From: Microcystis aeruginosa NIES-843
Lineage (GTDB): Bacteria > Cyanobacteriota > Cyanobacteriia > Cyanobacteriales > Microcystaceae
Assembly (NCBI RefSeq): GCF_000010625.1
Contig: NC_010296.1
Span: 5,130,001 to 5,162,000 of the forward strand
Length of the DNA stretch: 32,000 bases
Direction of reading: 5' to 3'
Positions 6,140 through 14,290 of the stretch are shown here, one piece after another. The notes beneath the pieces are model-generated. The model worked only from the letters and a program-made list of their open reading frames with translations. It was not told the origin of the DNA and made no database searches. A program made the position numbers and the translations under genes. The stretch's first letter is position 1, and each line of letters begins with the position of its first letter.

Positions 6140-6222
6140 TGCGCTTAGTCCTTTATTTAAAGTTGGCTGGTGCGTTACATTAATATTAACACACCTTAAC
6201 GAGATCGGCGATCGCACTTAGA

Positions 6223-6558
6223 TTAGGATTTATTTCGATACATGACCTGGATACTTACACTAGAGTTTGCTACGGCTTGGGGAGTGACTAAGATTTCTAT
6301 ATTCTGACCTAATGCTACTAGAAAGCTAAACATCTGCTCAAGAGAAAATTTTTGCAATCTGCCATTTTTTAAGTTAGAAATTTTAGCCTCGTCAATTCCC
6401 AAAATTTGACTGACCTCCTGCTGGCTTAATCCTTTTTCAGTAATCAGATCATAAATCACTGAAGCCAGCTTGACTTTAGCGAGTTTTTCTTCAGCATTAG
6501 CAAAGCCTAAGTCTTCAAAAATGTTTCCTGAACTAATAGTATATTCTGTCATAATCAT
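6223..6558 (-). CDS. XRE-family HTH antitoxin (HigA-like)
   Basis: 111 aa: ...LITEKGLSQQEVSQILGIDEAKISNLKNGRLQKFSLEQMFSFLVALG, a typical HTH_XRE. It lies downstream of a Gp49/HigB-like toxin gene. Confidence 0.8.
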   Translation of the reverse strand: MIMTEYTISSGNIFEDLGFANAEEKLAKVKLASVIYDLITEKGLSQQEVSQILGIDEAKISNLKNGRLQKFSLEQMFSFLVALGQNIEILVTPQAVANSSVSIQVMYRNKS

Positions 6559-6618: not shown

Positions 6619-6933
6619 TTATTTGATTAGATCAATATTTTGTTTTGGTGTTTTAATCCCTGATTTTGATTTTTTCTTAAAGGCATGGAGAATAAAAATA
6701 GCATTGCTTAGTTTAAGAGCATAAACTGTTCTATAGGTATCGGTTTGATAATCGCTGACTATTTCAAAAACACCATTAAACCCCTTTAAGCTTTTGACAT
6801 TAGGATGATTTTGATTATTCTGAACACGATAAAGAATGTAGCCAACTTCATCAACAACCTCTTCAGGAAATTCTAATAGCTCCTTTTTTGATGCTCCAAT
6901 CCAGATAACAGTTTTCAGTTGTTTATCTACCAT
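6619..6933 (-). CDS. Gp49/HigB-like RelE-superfamily toxin (13 codons shorter than the reading frame suggests)
   Basis: MVDKQLKTVIWIGASKKELLEFPEEV...TYRTVYALKLSNAIFILHAFKKKSKSGIKTPKQNIDLIK*. ATG at 6933; the track start at 6960 is a TTG. See the finding on the premature TAA. Confidence 0.75.
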   Translation of the reverse strand: MVDKQLKTVIWIGASKKELLEFPEEVVDEVGYILYRVQNNQNHPNVKSLKGFNGVFEIVSDYQTDTYRTVYALKLSNAIFILHAFKKKSKSGIKTPKQNIDLIK

Positions 6934-7004
6934 TTTTTTGAAAAAATGTGACAAATACAAATAAAAAGCTCATAAATTTGTTATAAAAATCCTCAAGACT
7001 AAGT

Positions 7005-7032
7005 TTGACAAAAAACCTGAGATTGTTATATT
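7005..7032 (+). promoter_or_regulatory. Sigma70-type promoter-like motif at the 5' edge of repeat copy 1
   Basis: TTGACA (7005-7010), 16-nt spacer, TATATT (7027-7032). It is conserved in copy 2. Called from sequence pattern only. Confidence 0.4.
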
Positions 7033-7357
7033 CTACAGGTTACAGGCTTTGAGAGAAGGATAACCAACCCCCACGCCCCACGCACCAATTATATCATTCA
7101 TTCTGCCTGAATATCAAACAGGAACTAGAAACCTGTTACTAGGGAGAGATTACTGCGGGGGGATATTCGGTAGCAGTTAAATAATCATAATAAAAACCAC
7201 TCCAGACACAGAGGACACAGTGGCGGCTCTTGTCGGGTGCGTTAGTAATAGAGTAACACACCAATTTTCTTAAGATGGTGCGTTACGGCGCGGTAATAGT
7301 TTAATTATTAACAAATCTCCTTTAAATACGCGCAAACACGCACCCTACAAGCTACTA
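7005..7357 (+). repeat. ~350-bp dispersed repeat, copy 1 (candidate MITE or ncRNA locus)
   Basis: Near-identical to 8257-8599, with about 18 substitutions and two indels by eye. The last 13 nt supply the final codons and stop of the higA-like gene at 7345. Confidence 0.85.
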
Positions 7358-7641
7358 ACAAGGCTCATTTTGACTCGTTGATTAAGGGCAGTGGCAATTT
7401 TTTGTAGCATTATTAGGGGATTGTCTTGATAGTCAGCGTCTTCTAGATCTTCAATAACGGATTGCTCAACATGGATTAGGTCGGCTAGTTGTTGTTGAGT
7501 TAATCCAGCATTCATACGAGCGTCATAAATCAATTGTGCGATTTCTGAGTTGAGGGATTCTAGGGCAATTTGTTCTTTGATTGTGGGATCGTCTGCAATC
7601 ATTTGGTGAATGATTTTTACGGCATCTGTGGTTTTAGGCAT
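7345..7641 (-). CDS. XRE-family HTH antitoxin (HigA-like)
   Basis: 98 aa: ...ARMNAGLTQQQLADLIHVEQSVIEDLEDADY. Overlaps the upstream toxin gene by 8 nt. Confidence 0.8.
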   Translation of the reverse strand: MPKTTDAVKIIHQMIADDPTIKEQIALESLNSEIAQLIYDARMNAGLTQQQLADLIHVEQSVIEDLEDADYQDNPLIMLQKIATALNQRVKMSLVSSL

Positions 7642-8026
7642 TGTTTATTTCTCCTTGATAAGTATGAAGTTCTGGATTTTGTTTAAATTGTGCTTTTCTT
7701 TGGATAATTCTCTCGATGTCTTGTGAGGGAACGGCGGAAGTTTTTTTGATAAGAGCATGACCAATAATTGCTATATTTTGACCATGATAAAAATAGAGGA
7801 TTCGATATTGTATGGTTCCCTGTTTGGCTCTAAGCTCCCAGATATCATTTCTGAGATAATCGGCAGCAGGGCGGCGCAGTTCATGACCTTGTGCGGCAAG
7901 TTGTTCGATTTTGGTTATACATTTGGCAAATCCTTTTTTATCAGTTTTGAGTAATTTCTGAAGCCACTCAACAACGGGTGAGATGCCTTCTGCTTCTTGA
8001 TAAAAGATGATTTTTGTCTTTGGCAC
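7634..8026 (-). CDS. Gp49/HigB-like (DUF891-type) toxin
   Basis: 130 aa with a GTG start: IIFYQEAEGISPVVEWLQKL...WELRAKQGTIQYRILYFYHGQNIAIIGHALIKKTSAVPSQDIERI. Confidence 0.8.
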   Translation of the reverse strand: MPKTKIIFYQEAEGISPVVEWLQKLLKTDKKGFAKCITKIEQLAAQGHELRRPAADYLRNDIWELRAKQGTIQYRILYFYHGQNIAIIGHALIKKTSAVPSQDIERIIQRKAQFKQNPELHTYQGEINNA

Positions 8027-8256
8027 GTTTCTTTTGAAATAGTATGCGATGAAAAATCAATAAATGTAATCAGGTGATGGTGATGGGTATCGAATTGCTG
8101 GATAGCTCATAACCTCGTTGAAAAGAATTATGCGATCGCCCCTTGTTTATCCCCTAAATTAAACTTAGAAATTCCGCGATAATAGACATCAACATCGTTA
8201 AGTATCGAGTTCCCCAAAAGCTGATGTTTCCGTGAGCAAAACCCCTAAAATTAGAC

Positions 8257-8284
8257 TTGACAAAAAACCTGAGATCGTTATATT
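8257..8284 (+). promoter_or_regulatory. Sigma70-type promoter-like motif at the 5' edge of repeat copy 2
   Basis: TTGACA (8257-8262), 16-nt spacer, TATATT (8279-8284). Confidence 0.4.
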
Positions 8285-8599
8285 CTACAGGTTACAGGCT
8301 TTGAGAGAAGGATAACCAACCCCCACGCCCCACGCACCAATTATATCATTCATTCTGCCTGAATATCAAACAGGAACTAGAAACCTGTTACTAGGGAGAG
8401 ATTGCTACGGGGGGATATTCGGCAGCAGTTAAATAATCATAATAAAAACCACTCCAGACACAGTAGCGGCTCTTGTCGGGTGCGTTAGTAATAGCATAAC
8501 GCACCAATTTTCTTAAGATGGTGCGTTACGGCGCGATCATAGTTTAATTATTAACAAATTTCCTTTAAGTACGCGCCTAACGCACCCTACAAGCTACTA
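8257..8599 (+). repeat. ~350-bp dispersed repeat, copy 2
   Basis: Direct repeat of 7005-7357. It holds hairpins ggtgcgtta/taacgcacc and ggtgcgttacggcgcg/cgcgcctaacgcacc (better paired than in copy 1) and aacagg-N9-cctgtt. Confidence 0.85.
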
Positions 8600-8629: not shown

Positions 8630-8656
8630 AAAAAAATCGACCCGCCTAGCGGCGGG
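8630..8656 (-). terminator. Putative intrinsic terminator of the kinase gene
   Basis: On the minus strand: cccgcc-gcua-ggcggg (6-bp GC stem, 4-nt loop), then ucga and U7. About 60 nt downstream of the stop at 8717. Confidence 0.5.
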
Positions 8657-8716
8657 AAAAAGAGAAAAATTGAAAAAAGTAAAAAAGGGTAAAAAAGGGT
8701 AAAAAGAGAATAAGGG

Positions 8717-10540
8717 TTACAGAGTCCTCCCAGCACCGCACACCACCCGAAAACCGAAGTAGTAGTCGTTGACGCGGCGGTAGAGGAAGTCGCGGTAAGC
8801 GGAACGGCAGAAATAGGGATCGTCGTACCAAGAACCGCCCCGCAGTATTTGATAATCATTATCATTTGTCAGCCAAGCACTGCCATCCTTTGGCGCTCCG
8901 ATATAGTTATCGTGCCAATTGTCCTCGCACCACTCCCAAACATTGCCACTCATGTCATACAGTCCCCAAGCATTAGGCCTTTTCTGGCCCACAGGATGAG
9001 TTTTATCCTGAGAATTTCCGTTATGCCAAGCGTAATCTCCTAACTGATTGGCATCATCACCGAAATAATAGCGAGTGGTTGTCCCCGCACGACAGGCATA
9101 TTCCCATTCCGCTTCCGTCGGTAGGCGATAGGTTTTTCCTGTTATTTGACTCAATTTTTGGCAAAAGGCTTGAGCATCATTCCAACTAACCTTTTCTACC
9201 GGATTTTGGGGATTGTTTTGAAACAGAGAGGGATTGTTTCCCATTACCGCTTCATATTGTGCCTGAGTCACTGGATATTTCCCAATAGCAAAACTGTTGA
9301 CTTGAACTTGGTGTTGAGGCTTTTCATTATCGCGAGCATCGGGATCACTGTCAGGAGATCCCATCATAAATTTTCCTCCAGGCAGTTCCACCATTGCTAA
9401 CTGTAACCCGCCAGGGAGTTTTTCAGTAAAATCTGATGGTGATGTTGCTGGTAATAATTTTAGCCAGGCATTTCTCTTGTCAATTACTAATGCGATCACC
9501 GCTCCAAATACAATCATCCCGATGCTATTATATAGCCATTTACGCCTAGTTATCCCTGATGTAGTGCTAATTTTTCTCTGAGGAGGAGGTGAAACGGTAG
9601 TAGGTTGTACTACAGTTCTACTCGAGGGAAGATTATTCAACGCTGTCAGAACTTCCGAAGCTGATTGATAGCGCTGGCTAGACTTATCTTCTAACATTTT
9701 GTTCAAGATATTCGCCCAAAAATCACTAATTGATCTTTTTTGAGATTTTAATACCGATTGCCATAACCATCGCCGCTGATCCACATCATAGACCGAATCA
9801 GGCAAATTACTGTTACTTTGGGGGAAACATCCTGTTAATAAACGGACACAGGTAGCGGCTAAACTATATAAATCACTAGCGGCGACTGCACTGCCCATGA
9901 TATGTTCATAAGGAGCATAACCGGGAGTGTATAAACCTGTCCCCATTTGGGAAGTTTGTTCTTTAATTCCCCCAAAATCAATTAACATCAATTTACCATC
10001 ACTCCGACGACGCATCAGGTTATCCGGTTTGATGTCACGATGAATCAATCCTTTAGAATGGAGATAAGCAAGGACTGGTAATAAATCCCGTAATATTTCT
10101 TGGATTTTCTGCTCACTAAATTTTCCTTCTCTTTGATATTCTTGAAAGAGGGTTTCTCCTTCAATAAATCCTTCTACTAAATAGAGAGAGTTTCCTTCCG
10201 AGAAGTAGTCATAAACGCTCGGAATTTGTTCGTGTCTTAATTCGTCTAATTTTTCCGCTTCTCTTTGAAATAACTCCTTAGACTTCTCAAGAGCCGCTCC
10301 CTGCATTTGAGCGATAAACTTTTTAATAACGCGGGGTTTGCGATTAAAATTCAAGTCCTCGGCTTTATAAGTTCTACCGAATGCGCCCTCTCCTAAAACC
10401 CCGACAATGAGATAACGGCTATGAAAAGAATATGATTGGCTAGTTTGGCTTAAATTTCCGCCACATCCTTGACAATAGCTATAATGAGTCGGATTTTGAG
10501 GATGGGAACATTCGGGATTGAGACAGTAGAGGATACTCAT
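8717..10540 (-). CDS. Transmembrane Ser/Thr protein kinase with N-terminal Cys4 zinc ribbon and C-terminal FGE-sulfatase/C-type-lectin-fold domain
   Basis: 607 aa. CLNPECSHPQN...CQGCG; kinase motifs GEGAFGRTYK, HRDIKPDN, DFG; one TM helix (WLYNSIGMIVFGAVIALVI); FGE-type domain (GKYPVTQAQYEAVMG...WEWCED...LRGGSW...FGFRVVC). Confidence 0.9.
   Translation of the reverse strand: MSILYCLNPECSHPQNPTHYSYCQGCGGNLSQTSQSYSFHSRYLIVGVLGEGAFGRTYKAEDLNFNRKPRVIKKFIAQMQGAALEKSKELFQREAEKLDELRHEQIPSVYDYFSEGNSLYLVEGFIEGETLFQEYQREGKFSEQKIQEILRDLLPVLAYLHSKGLIHRDIKPDNLMRRRSDGKLMLIDFGGIKEQTSQMGTGLYTPGYAPYEHIMGSAVAASDLYSLAATCVRLLTGCFPQSNSNLPDSVYDVDQRRWLWQSVLKSQKRSISDFWANILNKMLEDKSSQRYQSASEVLTALNNLPSSRTVVQPTTVSPPPQRKISTTSGITRRKWLYNSIGMIVFGAVIALVIDKRNAWLKLLPATSPSDFTEKLPGGLQLAMVELPGGKFMMGSPDSDPDARDNEKPQHQVQVNSFAIGKYPVTQAQYEAVMGNNPSLFQNNPQNPVEKVSWNDAQAFCQKLSQITGKTYRLPTEAEWEYACRAGTTTRYYFGDDANQLGDYAWHNGNSQDKTHPVGQKRPNAWGLYDMSGNVWEWCEDNWHDNYIGAPKDGSAWLTNDNDYQILRGGSWYDDPYFCRSAYRDFLYRRVNDYYFGFRVVCGAGRTL
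8729..8845 (-). other. Candidate DGR-type variable region (VR) within the kinase C-terminus
   Basis: The 39 codons hold only 12 adenines, all at codon positions 1-2 of Tyr/Asp/Asn codons. All 6 Arg are CGN and more than half the codons end in C, in sharp contrast to the A/T-rich flanking codons. No TR or RT in the window. Confidence 0.5.
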
Positions 10541-10663: not shown

Positions 10664-10723
10664 TAACGCACCGATTATATGATTAATTGTACCTGAATAT
10701 CAAACAGGAAACAGAAGCCTGTT
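10664..10723 (+). repeat. Partial diverged copy of the ~350-bp repeat (core with the aacagg-N9-cctgtt hairpin)
   Basis: gtaacgcaccgattatatgattaattgtacctgaatatcaaacaggaaacagaagcctgtt versus cacgcaccaattatatcattcattctgcctgaatatcaaacaggaactagaaacctgtt in copies 1 and 2. Confidence 0.7.
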
Positions 10724-10738
10724 CCGCGGCAGTGGGAG

Positions 10739-11059
10739 TTAGGGGTTGCTAACAGGGGGAACAGTGATGACAAAGCGGATAACAGTTCCGATAACTGCTG
10801 TTGCCAAGATGGTGATTAATGCCCAAATTTGGGCTTTCTGGGAGCCTTTAATCTCTTTTAAATCACCTTGTAAGGTGTTGAATTCTCCCTGTAATGCCTT
10901 GAGATCTCCCTTTACTTCGGCCTCGAATCTGACTTGAACAATCCTGATCTCTGTGACATCTTTCTGGAGCGCGTCTAGCTTCTGATTGGTCTCTTTAAGA
11001 TTCTGATTAATCTGGTCTAGGATTTTTCCTAAATCGGTTTCGATGGTGGGGCCGCTCAT
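10739..11059 (-). CDS. Small coiled-coil protein with C-terminal transmembrane anchor, function unknown
   Basis: 106 aa with heptad-like LKETNQKLDALQKDVTEIRIVQ...LQGEFNTLQGDLKEIKG, then a hydrophobic IWALITILATAVIGTVIRFVI segment. Confidence 0.6.
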   Translation of the reverse strand: MSGPTIETDLGKILDQINQNLKETNQKLDALQKDVTEIRIVQVRFEAEVKGDLKALQGEFNTLQGDLKEIKGSQKAQIWALITILATAVIGTVIRFVITVPPVSNP

Positions 11060-11365: not shown

Positions 11366-11394
11366 TCTGACAACTTTTAACGCCTACCTACTTA

Positions 11395-11420
11395 ATAAAA
11401 ACCACTCCAGACACAGAGGA
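11395..11420 (+). repeat. Short solo fragment of the ~350-bp repeat
   Basis: ataaaaaccactccagacacagagga is identical to 7190-7215 of copy 1. Confidence 0.6.
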
Positions 11421-11494
11421 AACAAAGATCATATCATTTTTGGTTTGCGGTGGACGTTGTAGAATAGAGAAAACCTACTGCGCTGATAGATACC

Positions 11495-12096: not shown

Positions 12097-13557
12097 CTAG
12101 ATAGCATAGAGACTTTTTTCGGAAGTATCAAAGTGAGCAAGCGTAATTTTTTTGGCGAGGATAGAAGTTTTTCCAGGCAAAAAAACAGAACGTTGCTGGA
12201 AATATTCGCCAAAATATTGACGATAGAGAGGACAACTGACTCGGCAAAACTTACCTTGTCGGTGAATCAGTCCGAGACTTTCTAGGTGAAAAGCCGCCAT
12301 TAAATCAATTTCTATGTCTTTTTCCGCCATCACCACCTTAGCAAAGATAGCCGCCAAATTGCCCTTTAAGTATTGCAGATGCCAAAGTAAACGTTTAAGA
12401 TGGTCTGCAAAAATATTACTTTCCTCCCCGATAGAAGTAGCTAAAATGGTTTCTAGGGTACAATTACTCCGAGCAATATGATAGCAAGCAAGACGAATTA
12501 AATAGGGATTCCCCCCTAGAAATATCCGTAATTTTTCGCAGTCAAAATTCTGCTCTAATCCCTGTCTTTGACTTAATTCTCGTACTTGTGCGCTGGTAAA
12601 ATTAGGCAATTCGATCGGTAAACCAAGACTGAAAGGAGATTGATAGGTATCTGAGGTTTTATCAAGCTCCTGTGCAGGGGAATAGGCAACAATTAAACGT
12701 AATTTTTGCCAGAGGGGTTTGTTTTTGCCTTCCTCGTGCCAGAGGTGGAGAATACTAAAAAATTCTTCCCTTAGCTGTGGATAGGGGAAAAGATATTCAA
12801 GATCATCAAAGGCAAGCACTAAAGGGCGATCGAGATGGGAGAGAATATGCTTTTCTAGATAGATTTTACAGTTAATTTTACCACCTAAGAATTCATCCCA
12901 ATCCTCTGGGAGATGATTGTCTAAATCTAACTGGCGACTAATACTAACACAAAGCCAACGCAGCCAGTGATTTAAATCTTGAAAAATTGATCTTTCTGCT
13001 AACCGAAAACTGAAATAAAGGGTATGGTATTGCTGTTGTTGTGCATAATTAATAATTCTAGTCATCAGGGAAGTTTTTCCCATTTTTCTGGCCGCGTTAA
13101 TCCGGATAAGACTACCGCGGCGTAATATCTCTTGATAACAAGTCTGTTCTAGATTATTTCTGTTGATATAAAAGGGGGAATTGAGGGGGACTTGTCCCTC
13201 TGGTAACTCAGGCAATAGTTGAGGATTAATAGTGTTAGTTTCTGGTAGGTTAGGACGATAATAATCGCTATTTTCTAAAGTTAAATTAAAAGCTTGAAAA
13301 CAATGTTTCAGGGTTTGTTTATCCACTCCCGATTCACAAGCAAATACCTTCATCAGAGTATCTACCCCTAAAAGAGTTTTCTCGCTGAGGACTTCTAGGG
13401 TGAAACGATGACCGCGATTATCCCGATACTCCGCTTCTTGTTTGGCAGTAAGTAATTTTTCTAGTCCCGTGGGGGTAAGGACAACCCCGCGTCTGCGGCG
13501 CTGTTTTTCTGGTTTTTCCATGATAGTTTTTCCCTGTCCTGAACTCAAACTCTGCAC
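12097..13557 (-). CDS. AAA-like (AAA_35-type, STAND-like) ATPase with N-terminal HTH-like domain
   Basis: 486 aa. N-terminal RRRRGVVLTPTGLEKLL...GVDKQTLKHCFQAFNLTLENSDYY; Walker A-like ARKMGKTSL; Walker B-like LVLAFDDLE. An alternative start is MEKPEK at 13521. Confidence 0.7.
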   Translation of the reverse strand: MQSLSSGQGKTIMEKPEKQRRRRGVVLTPTGLEKLLTAKQEAEYRDNRGHRFTLEVLSEKTLLGVDTLMKVFACESGVDKQTLKHCFQAFNLTLENSDYYRPNLPETNTINPQLLPELPEGQVPLNSPFYINRNNLEQTCYQEILRRGSLIRINAARKMGKTSLMTRIINYAQQQQYHTLYFSFRLAERSIFQDLNHWLRWLCVSISRQLDLDNHLPEDWDEFLGGKINCKIYLEKHILSHLDRPLVLAFDDLEYLFPYPQLREEFFSILHLWHEEGKNKPLWQKLRLIVAYSPAQELDKTSDTYQSPFSLGLPIELPNFTSAQVRELSQRQGLEQNFDCEKLRIFLGGNPYLIRLACYHIARSNCTLETILATSIGEESNIFADHLKRLLWHLQYLKGNLAAIFAKVVMAEKDIEIDLMAAFHLESLGLIHRQGKFCRVSCPLYRQYFGEYFQQRSVFLPGKTSILAKKITLAHFDTSEKSLYAI

Positions 13558-14218: not shown

Positions 14219-14290
14219 TGGGCGTTGTAAGGGTCGAACTTACGGCATCCTGCTTGTAAGGCAGGCGCTCTACCACTGAGCTAAACGCCC
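14219..14290 (-). tRNA. trnV: tRNA-Val (anticodon UAC), CCA not encoded
   Basis: Reverse complement GGGCGTTtaGCTCagtggtaGAGCgCCTGCctTACaaGCAGGatgccGTAAGttcgaccCTTACAACGCCCa. It folds as 7-bp acceptor, D, anticodon and T arms with a TTCGA T-loop. Confidence 0.95.

Follow-up and report, generated by a model that had tools for sequence, protein, structure and literature searches.

Can a gene be recognized as the target of a diversity-generating retroelement (DGR) where no template and no reverse transcriptase (RT) lie beside it? This question is raised by a minus-strand gene (positions 8717..10540) in a 32-kb stretch of the Microcystis aeruginosa NIES-843 chromosome, hereafter the window (32,000 nt). 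The gene encodes a 607-aa bifunctional Ser/Thr kinase and FGE-family (C-type-lectin fold) protein, as assigned from the ORF list, Pfam and an exact-sequence look-up, and its adenine-poor 3′ end had been proposed as a DGR variable region (VR) in an initial annotation made from the letters alone. Our analysis supports this proposal: with a probability of about 0.85, we regard positions 8729–8845 (minus strand) as the VR of a remote DGR target that is an orphan in NIES-843, with its last diversified state frozen.

The VR (8729..8845, minus strand; 117 nt, 39 codons) was delimited by ungapped comparison with a template repeat (TR) from another Microcystis locus, L010. Read from 8845 to 8729, it is exactly the 39-codon segment listed in the initial annotation; it makes up the final 39 codons of the lectin-like domain, at the 3′ terminus of the ORF, lies within the C-terminal part of the PF03781 match (aa 382–600), and ends 9 nt before the stop codon. 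As originally counted, it has 12 adenines in 117 nt, all in Tyr, Asp or Asn codons, where they occupy position 1 or 2; position 3 has none. Its composition departs from that of the rest of the gene in overall A content (at most 12/117 vs 31.4%; binomial P = 6e-8), in A at position 3 (0/39 vs 29.9%; P about 1e-6) and in C-ending codons (22/39 vs 16.8%; P = 2e-8), and no other in-frame run of 39 codons in the gene has so little A. All six Arg codons in the VR are CGN; elsewhere in the gene, Arg is most often encoded by AGA. The codons just upstream are A-rich and of the NNT type, again as first described. The accompanying claim that every scaffold residue has an A-free codon needs one correction: codon 10 (CCC) is A-derived, since the TR has CCA there, with a silent third-position A.

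The exact-sequence look-up identified the protein as BAG05403.1 (WP_012267865.1, B0JGY7) of M. aeruginosa NIES-843, and Pfam returned Pkinase (PF00069, E = 2.2e-39) and FGE-sulfatase (PF03781, E = 2.5e-60). The kinase domain (aa 46–297; 9650..10405, minus strand), placed by PF00069 and motif positions, contains GEGAFG (50), VIKK (71), HRDIKPDN (167) and DFG (188), that is, the Gly-rich loop, catalytic Lys, HRD and DFG of a Hanks-type Ser/Thr kinase, so that kinase activity is predicted. A single hydrophobic helix (aa 335–353, WLYNSIGMIVFGAVIALVI; 9482..9538, minus strand) was the top Kyte–Doolittle 19-residue window of the protein, and the topology suggested by this helix would place the following FGE-sulfatase/C-type-lectin-fold domain (aa 382–600; 8741..9397, minus strand; PF03781) outside the cytoplasm. 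A diversified domain in that predicted position would make the protein a receptor kinase whose sensor tip can be re-programmed. The domain order given in the initial annotation is therefore upheld by Pfam and hydropathy for the kinase, the one transmembrane helix and the FGE domain; the N-terminal zinc ribbon that it also listed is only a possible one, read from a Cys pattern in the translation (C6-x4-C11 ... C23-x2-C26; 10463..10525, minus strand) in a stretch where Pfam gave no match. For the FGE domain, a PDB sequence search found PvdO (5hha, E = 3.6e-38) and the Treponema denticola variable protein TvpA (2y3c, E = 4.1e-33), and the C-terminal stretch that includes the VR aligns to the end of the TvpA chain (residues 157–292 of 294). 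By sequence, the domain is homologous to TvpA, a DGR variable protein of solved structure.

We scanned species-representative genomes with a degenerate VR pattern and obtained matches in Microcystis only, at 10 loci, of which L010 is an AAC-rich TR. The initial annotation had predicted a template of about 120 nt that would match the VR at every non-A position and carry AAC or AAT at the variable codons. Such a template does exist in other Microcystis genomes and metagenome contigs (L010 and L028–L031); it is 117 nt long and runs TAC AAC AAT CCA AAT AAC ... AAC x4 ... GAC AAC x5. The neighbors forecast for it were found as well, the TR lying directly 3′ of bAvd and a DGR-type RT at all five loci. 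At L010, the order is a NACHT-GUN4-FGE target, bAvd (PF22296, E = 4.6e-19), an RVT_1 reverse transcriptase and then the TR, and L028–L031 contain an intact bAvd, a 360-aa RT and the same 6-AAC TR. The RTs of these loci (352–360 aa) have IGNLTSQ and YVDD motifs, and the Microcystis RT is 73–78% identical to the DGR RTs of the cyanobacteria Nostoc, Fischerella, Calothrix and Nodularia. On plasmid p1 of strain NIES-2481 (L026), a truncated RT is followed by a 7-AAC version of this TR, and plasmid p1FD4 of strain FD4 (L027) carries a second DGR lineage comprising avd, RT, TR and two targets. DGR cores broken by MITE or IS insertions are common in Microcystis.

In the ungapped comparison with the TR of L010, and equally with that of L028–L031, all from other Microcystis strains and not from the source genome, the NIES-843 VR has 18 mismatches, all among the 30 TR adenines, and none at the 87 non-A sites (hypergeometric P = 1.3e-13). 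A cognate TR beside bAvd and RT, together with A-only mismatches, bears out the reading of this segment as a DGR variable region. The same specificity is seen across the population. Three loci (L019, L024 and L025), which are metagenome contigs and may come from genomes with or without an RT, match the window at 100% identity over 427 nt upstream and in the 3′ flank, yet differ from its VR at 20–21 TR-A sites and at none of the VR non-A sites; silent third positions and flanks are fully (100%) conserved where the A sites differ. Among 13 distinct VRs, differences occurred in 224 of 390 A-site cells but in 8 of 1131 non-A cells; of the 30 A sites, 29 varied. Variation between strains is confined to A-derived positions in both comparisons, as had been anticipated.

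Several features around the VR resemble sites that a DGR would use. Its 3′ end (8729..8755, minus strand; GGTTTTCGGGTGGTGTGCGGTGCTGGG), identified in the VR/TR alignments, is A-free and made of G+C/T only, and is invariant in almost all VRs and in TRs. By analogy with the BPP-1 model (PMC3240598), it may correspond to the GC-rich part of the IMH (initiation of mutagenic homing) element. It is followed by a VR-specific end, AGGACTCTGTAA (Arg-Thr-Leu-stop; 8717..8728, minus strand), in place of which TRs have ATTACTCTTGAT or ATTACTCTTTAT: most VRs found have AGGACT, with GGGACT (L001) and AGGACC (L003) as exceptions, whereas all TRs have ATTACT. This difference would be of the IMH vs IMH* kind and would mark recipient and donor. 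Downstream sequences of all VR loci also revealed a pyrimidine-rich spacer with ACCCTTTTTT repeats (8657..8716, minus strand) that is conserved 3′ of most paralogous VRs.

Beyond the spacer, a terminator-like scan and DNA folding located the GC hairpin with a 4-nt loop that the initial annotation had reported, CCCGCC-GCTA-GGCGGG (8641..8656, minus strand), with a 6-bp stem starting 61 nt past the stop codon. The same stem occurs 3′ of many VRs, including cassette-internal targets in L010, L014 and L015, with GCTA, TAGC, CTTA or TCAC as the loop. In phage DGRs, the hairpin consensus is a GC-rich stem of 7–10 bp with a 4-nt GRNA loop (sense strand), 4–34 bp after the VR (PMC3240598). The 6-bp stem (8 bp in BPP-1), the non-GRNA loops, which appear in both orientations, and the distance of 61 nt from the stop codon rule out a classic phage-type cruciform. 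Because the agreement lies in the GC-rich stem and the 4-nt loop size only, the hairpin may still have a structure-dependent role. It is followed by a TCGATTTTTTT tail (8630..8640, minus strand), and hairpin and tail form an intrinsic-terminator-like site in the scan. The hairpin thus reads equally well as a terminator, and any function in retrohoming would be putative.

Taken by homology to the BPP-1 paradigm, these elements suggest how the VR may have arisen. The cassette of bAvd, RT and 117-nt TR would be transcribed in DGR-bearing Microcystis, and the RT would copy TR RNA with random misincorporation opposite adenines. The resulting cDNA would replace the homologous 3′ end of target genes, so that as many as 17 codons for the ligand-binding face of the domain with the C-type-lectin fold could be randomized; about 1.2e17 protein variants were computed on the premise that every TR adenine can become any base. 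In the present case, the target would be a membrane-anchored Hanks-type Ser/Thr kinase with the diversified domain predicted outside the cytoplasm. Should a DGR core be acquired again, this VR retains what would allow the core to act on it: the A-free 3′ end, the AGGACT end and the hairpin downstream.

We then asked where that core is with respect to NIES-843. Repeat finding, an ungapped two-strand scan that tolerated up to 60 mismatches, and low-stringency blastn recovered the VR itself but no second copy (TR) within the 32 kb. No RT was found by Pfam among the ten largest ORFs of the window, tblastn gave no RT or Avd remnant below E = 1, and an Rfam scan of the window returned one tRNA only. 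The earlier statement that the 32 kb hold no second copy and no RT is thus confirmed, and Avd is likewise absent. Beyond the window, a myRT census lists seven RTs in NIES-843, all of the group II intron type (PMC8934634). The combination of a window devoid of a core and a genome with no DGR-class RT in the census indicates that the VR is most probably a frozen orphan, which agrees with the “remote or fossil target” of the initial annotation. It would be an orphan that keeps its cis elements, with neither a TR nor a broken RT expected elsewhere in the genome on the strength of published RT censuses, which may miss pseudogenes.

A contrary possibility is that a functional Avd–RT–TR unit lies elsewhere in the 5.84-Mb NIES-843 chromosome, missed by the census, and that the VR is still diversifying. 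According to PMC7517822, remote targets far from their RT are usual in cyanobacteria, and the VR scaffold, with 0/87 non-A mismatches to the TR, is undecayed and its cis elements are intact. Nevertheless, the seven RTs of NIES-843 are all of another class, and the same paper names only NIES-2549 as a Microcystis genome with DGR components, NIES-843 being absent from its DGR-bearing cyanobacterial genomes. Furthermore, an identical VR allele was found on three independent metagenome contigs, one with a cassette deletion downstream and one with a single substitution at a non-A site; sharing of one allele and an ordinary non-A substitution are as expected of a frozen VR. We consider a live target improbable. 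A core on a plasmid or other mobile element, acting in trans and since lost from NIES-843 or never sequenced, is somewhat easier to envisage but still unlikely. Microcystis plasmids do carry DGR parts (NIES-2481 p1, FD4 p1FD4), and the 6- and 7-AAC TR lengths match the VR length variants in the population. However, the copy on NIES-2481 p1 is a degenerate one in which only aa 103–350 of the RT remain and Avd is missing, the intact cores (L028–L031), which lie on short contigs, may be chromosomal or plasmid-borne, and the RT of NIES-2549 is listed under the chromosome record CP011304 (PMC7517822). A phage origin of the RT and TR was rejected: the closest RT from a phage shares about 40% identity, and the TR is absent from IMG/VR contigs.

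The allele may also have been imported. On this view, no diversification of the VR ever took place in the NIES-843 lineage, and the allele, or the lectin module with its 3′ flank, was recombined in from a DGR-bearing Microcystis. The genes at L024 and L025 share the N-terminus (90–93%) and the lectin domain (94.6% with the VR) with the NIES-843 gene and differ mid-gene, which points to a mosaic lectin module, and this module occurs with the same 3′ flank in kinase, NACHT, CHAT and tandem multi-lectin proteins. In addition, the full-length protein is the sole member of its 90% cluster, which therefore holds no exact orthologue with another VR allele, the closest alleles being mosaics that share the lectin module. 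We regard import as a real, if minority, possibility; it does not exclude the frozen-orphan reading, since DGR retrohoming would have produced the sequence in either case. That the segment has nothing to do with a DGR, its A-poor NNC codons being due to a local bias in composition, to chance or to ordinary diversifying selection among paralogues, has next to no probability. The FGE motif GGSW...CRSA.R...GFR is also retained in relatives that are not DGR proteins, PvdO among them, so part of the VR scaffold would be conserved anyway. Against this stand a TR with AAC at the variable codons that adjoins bAvd and a DGR RT, and the conservation of silent third positions and flanks beside differing A sites. 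A non-DGR origin is refuted by the confinement of VR/TR mismatches to TR adenines, the L019, L024 and L025 alleles, and the 13-VR comparison.

DGRs with remote kinase–lectin targets are already known in Microcystis, and the NIES-843 VR adds a further member. For strain NIES-2549, Vallota-Eastman et al. (2020; PMC7517822) give an RT (AKE65309.1), a kinase–CLec variable protein (AKE65307.1) and remote variable proteins (AKE62606.1, AKE65350.1 and AKE64189.1), in keeping with the initial annotation, which took kinase–lectin proteins to be published cyanobacterial DGR targets; the NIES-843 protein is not among the targets named in the accessible text of that paper. Both strains have a Ser/Thr kinase target with a C-terminal C-type-lectin/FGE domain, remote targets and a VR at the 3′ terminus, but the RT is present in NIES-2549, whereas none is reported for NIES-843. 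The cyanobacterial DGRs of Nostoc sp. PCC 7120 and relatives, with RTs of the 73–78% identity given above, likewise have kinase, NACHT or CHAT targets with CLec domains, and such targets have been proposed as signal-transduction or “antigen sensor” proteins. Their RT subclade, 5E, was reported to be almost exclusively multicellular (63 of 64 characterized species; Dore et al., bioRxiv 10.1101/2023.09.22.558884), whereas Microcystis is unicellular and colony-forming; its RT is likened to theirs by sequence identity.

The BPP-1 DGR (Brt, Avd, TR, Mtd VR, IMH, hairpin/cruciform; Guo et al. 2011, PMC3240598) shares with the present system the adenine-specific transfer from TR to VR. In both, the VR lies at the 3′ end of a gene with a CLec fold, its own end is GC-rich and free of A and precedes a sequence that discriminates VR from TR, and a GC hairpin with a 4-nt loop occurs 3′ of the VR. 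Apart from the hairpin differences described above, the Microcystis system is cellular rather than phage-borne, and the NIES-843 target is remote from any core. T. denticola TvpA has the same FGE-type C-type-lectin fold, and the VR stretch aligns to within two residues of its chain end, but TvpA is a lipoprotein that has no kinase domain and has its own DGR core adjacent.

Microcystis is a major bloom-forming toxic cyanobacterium, and in its natural populations the sensor tip of a predicted membrane receptor kinase differs between otherwise identical alleles. These differences point to strain-specific sensing of putative ligands. A DGR target could be recognized here from codon composition alone, although the locus, and probably the genome as well, lacks both RT and template. 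RT-centered DGR surveys would overlook such orphan targets and may therefore undercount genes shaped by DGRs; the orphans are also a natural system in which trans-acting retrohoming, and the cis elements that it requires, could be studied. As a speculative picture, in which we place limited confidence, the Microcystis DGR core would come and go as an accessory element, at times borne on plasmids and frequently broken, whose chromosomal receptor-kinase, NACHT and CHAT targets outlive it as retrohoming-competent orphan VRs. If this were true, NIES-843-like strains would harbor sensor specificities that are frozen but open to re-randomization in trans once a core is gained, recombination of lectin modules would also carry DGR-made alleles from strain to strain, and diversification would act at the level of the population pangenome rather than of single genomes.

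The segment at 8729–8845 (−) lies in the kinase/FGE gene (8717–10540, −), and on re-reading, its coding strand (8845 to 8729) matched exactly the 39-codon string given in the initial annotation. Its A-poor, NNC-rich composition was confirmed: adenines make up 12 of 117 nt, compared with 31.4% in the rest of the gene (P = 6e-8), none of the 39 codons has adenine at the third position (29.9% in the rest of the gene; P about 1e-6), and 22 of 39 codons end in C (16.8% in the rest of the gene; P = 2e-8). As had also been claimed, all 12 adenines fall within the first two positions of codons for Tyr, Asp or Asn, and all six Arg codons are CGN, AGA being the commonest in the rest of the gene. One assignment was wrong: codon 10 (CCC), taken for scaffold, is CCA in the template repeat (TR), that is, it has a silent third-position adenine.

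The predicted AAC/AAT template beside a diversity-generating retroelement (DGR) reverse transcriptase (RT) and Avd was found in other Microcystis (L010 and L028–L031). We scanned a species-representative genome collection with the central variable region (VR), setting positions 1 and 2 of the suspected variable codons to N. All 10 matches were in Microcystis; nine were further VRs and one was a TR, at locus L010 of Microcystis sp. M015S2, reading TAC AAC AAT CCA AAT AAC TGC CGT TCC GCT TAC CGC AAC AAC AAC AAC CGC CGC GAC AAC AAC AAC AAC AAC GGT TTT CGG. The gene order there is NACHT-GUN4-FGE target, bAvd (PF22296, E = 4.6e-19), RVT_1 RT and TR, the TR beginning 21 nt past the RT stop. Reconstructed by removing a 139-nt inverted-repeat insertion, the RT comprises 352 aa and contains IGNLTSQ and YVDD. 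Its relatives are 97% and 93% identical in Microcystis MAGs and metagenomes, and 73–78% identical in Nostoc, Fischerella, Calothrix and Nodularia. In contigs L028 (from Microcystis sp. LE18-22.4A) to L031, both bAvd and the 360-aa RT are intact, and the TR is identical to that of L010.

The mismatches were of the DGR type proposed for this segment. Compared with the TR, the window VR has 18 mismatches, all among the 30 aligned with TR adenines (TR-A sites) and none among the other 87 (hypergeometric P = 1.3e-13). Across 13 distinct VRs of the same length class, 224 of 390 A-site cells were changed relative to the TR versus 8 of 1131 non-A cells, with 29 of the 30 TR-A sites varying. Homology between VR and TR extends from CTGCGGGG (8845) to GCTGGG (8729). 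Beyond it, most VRs continue with AGGACT (exceptions: GGGACT at L001 and AGGACC at L003) and all TRs with ATTACT, a difference of like kind to that between IMH and IMH*, by which the BPP-1 model (PMC3240598) tells recipient from donor.

Natural populations showed the confinement of variation to A-derived sites that had been anticipated. A single metagenome scan with the gene-specific codons just before the VR returned, among others, alleles L019, L024 and L025, which are 100% identical to the window over the 427 nt preceding the VR and across the 3′ flank, bar a hairpin loop. Within the VR, 20–21 of the 30 TR-A sites differ from the window and every non-A site is the same; the sole other nearby difference is a 4-nt inversion of that loop (GCTA versus TAGC). 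Differences restricted to A sites on identical flanks are what recent mutagenic retrohoming into this module should leave behind. The second variable block also varies in length, from 6 to 9 codons among metagenome alleles, and the TR on plasmid p1 of M. aeruginosa NIES-2481 has a 7-codon second block (GAC plus six AAC) versus 6 (GAC plus five). Separately, genes at L016 (4464–6200), L017 and L021 encode 3–6 tandem lectin-like domains, each with one VR-like segment that comes after the same run of codons as the window VR and has a second block of 6–9 codons. In two adjacent domains the first variable block is the same and the second differs, as if the 3′ part alone had been rewritten.

The window itself holds the target and nothing of a DGR core. 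As initially stated, the segment has no second copy there: repeat finding, an ungapped scan of both strands and low-stringency blastn with the TR from relatives each returned the segment alone. The reported lack of an RT in the window was borne out by tblastn with Microcystis DGR RT and bAvd, which gave no match below E = 1. The larger ORFs encode glycosyltransferases, an AAA_35 ATPase, NdhB, a type I/IIG methylase, YchF, EF-G and others (Pfam); the only Rfam match at gathering score is a tRNA gene (14219–14290, −). For strain NIES-843 as a whole, seven RTs are listed, all of group II intron type (PMC8934634), and a survey of cyanobacterial DGRs lists NIES-2549 as the only Microcystis genome with DGR components (PMC7517822). 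An identical 607-aa product is encoded on three ENA metagenome contigs (L011–L013); L011 matches the window at 100% identity across 3.4 kb, and L013 has one VR substitution, at a non-A site. These alleles are consistent with a VR whose rewriting has ceased in this lineage. Given the censuses without a DGR RT in NIES-843 and this shared allele, we regard the region, on literature and indirect evidence, as an orphan (frozen) remote target.

Microcystis DGR cores are patchy and often damaged. In L010, the RT is split by the 139-nt insertion (6203–6341), a MITE whose terminal inverted repeats read GGCTCTTCTCGG...CCAGAAGAGCC, apparently with duplication of CTGGCGA; the VR of the adjacent target differs from the TR at non-A sites and by one extra codon. 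In metagenome contigs L014 and L015, the TR breaks off after about 60 nt, interrupted by unrelated AT-rich sequence (about 7085–7193 and 6719–6879, respectively), with RT (P0002) and bAvd intact. DGR parts also occur on plasmids: NIES-2481 p1 (L026, 30458–43201) has an RT cut to aa 103–350 and no Avd, and p1FD4 of M. aeruginosa FD4 (L027) carries a second DGR lineage with its own TR, a 75% identical RT, ISMae4 between avd and RT, and two FGE-family targets. No close RT was found in phages, and the TR was absent from a viral contig collection.

The GC hairpin with a 4-nt loop noted initially is present 61 nt past the stop (CCCGCC-GCTA-GGCGGG, 8641–8656, −). The same stem (CCCGCC-N4-GGCGGG) followed by TCGATTTT lies downstream of many VRs, including cassette-internal targets of L010, L014 and L015, and is precisely missing from others, L002 and L003 for example, and from one of two VR flanks in L022. 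It also scores as terminator-like, and it does not conform to the phage DGR hairpin consensus (7–10 bp stem, GRNA loop, 4–34 bp from the VR; PMC3240598). The loop (region 8645–8652) reads GCTA in the window, whereas alleles whose flanks are otherwise identical (L019, L023, L024, L025, L004 and L006) have the reverse complement, TAGC, an inversion suggestive of extrusion or recombination of the palindrome in vivo. The spacer between stop and hairpin (8657–8716) is rich in pyrimidines and contains three ACCCTTTTTT repeats; similar repeats, CCCTTTTT, come after almost every paralogous VR but not after the TR. Farther downstream, direct repeats of about 370 nt (6964–7333 and 8216–8576; 92–93% identical) flank a Gp49/HTH toxin–antitoxin-like gene pair (7345–8026), which metagenome contig L012 lacks by a loss exactly between the repeats. 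Partial copies (10666–10745 and 11393–11424) lie upstream of the kinase gene and of the next small-ORF pair, and in two copies there is a promoter-like TTGATA-18-TATAAT (8369→8340 and 10703→10674). The arrangement resembles a series of gene cassettes with a portable, promoter-carrying repeat between them.

The 607-aa product is identical to BAG05403.1 / WP_012267865.1 / B0JGY7 of M. aeruginosa NIES-843. Pfam assigns a protein kinase domain to aa 46–297 (E = 2.2e-39; motifs GEGAFG, VIKK, HRDIKPDN and DFG) and an FGE-sulfatase domain of C-type-lectin fold to aa 382–600 (E = 2.5e-60), and aa 335–353 form the sole strongly hydrophobic stretch. No signal peptide precedes the kinase and a single TM helix follows it, from which a periplasmic position is predicted for the diversified domain; the protein would then be a receptor kinase with a variable sensor. 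In the alignment with TvpA, a DGR protein of solved structure, the variable residues lie in the part matched to its corresponding C-terminal stretch. The kinase gene has an AAA_35 (STAND-like) ATPase gene 1.5 kb upstream (12097–13557, −; 486 aa, E = 9.7e-117).

By homology to the DGR model, an RT–Avd complex would reverse-transcribe TR RNA with random incorporation opposite A, and the cDNA would replace the VR starting at its A-free, GC-rich 3′ end. Seventeen codons (NNC, NNT, TNC and GNC) would be randomised with stop codons impossible, for up to a computed 1.2e17 or so protein variants. Among multidomain DGR targets of cyanobacteria, kinase–CLec proteins are the most frequent, and remote targets are common there; NIES-2549 provides a published case of a Microcystis DGR that has kinase targets (PMC7517822). 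The window locus is a further member of the same published kind and would not surprise a specialist. Particular to it are its orphan status in an apparently RT-less strain, a downstream hairpin that deviates from the phage consensus, and direct evidence from populations that variation between identical flanks is limited to A sites.
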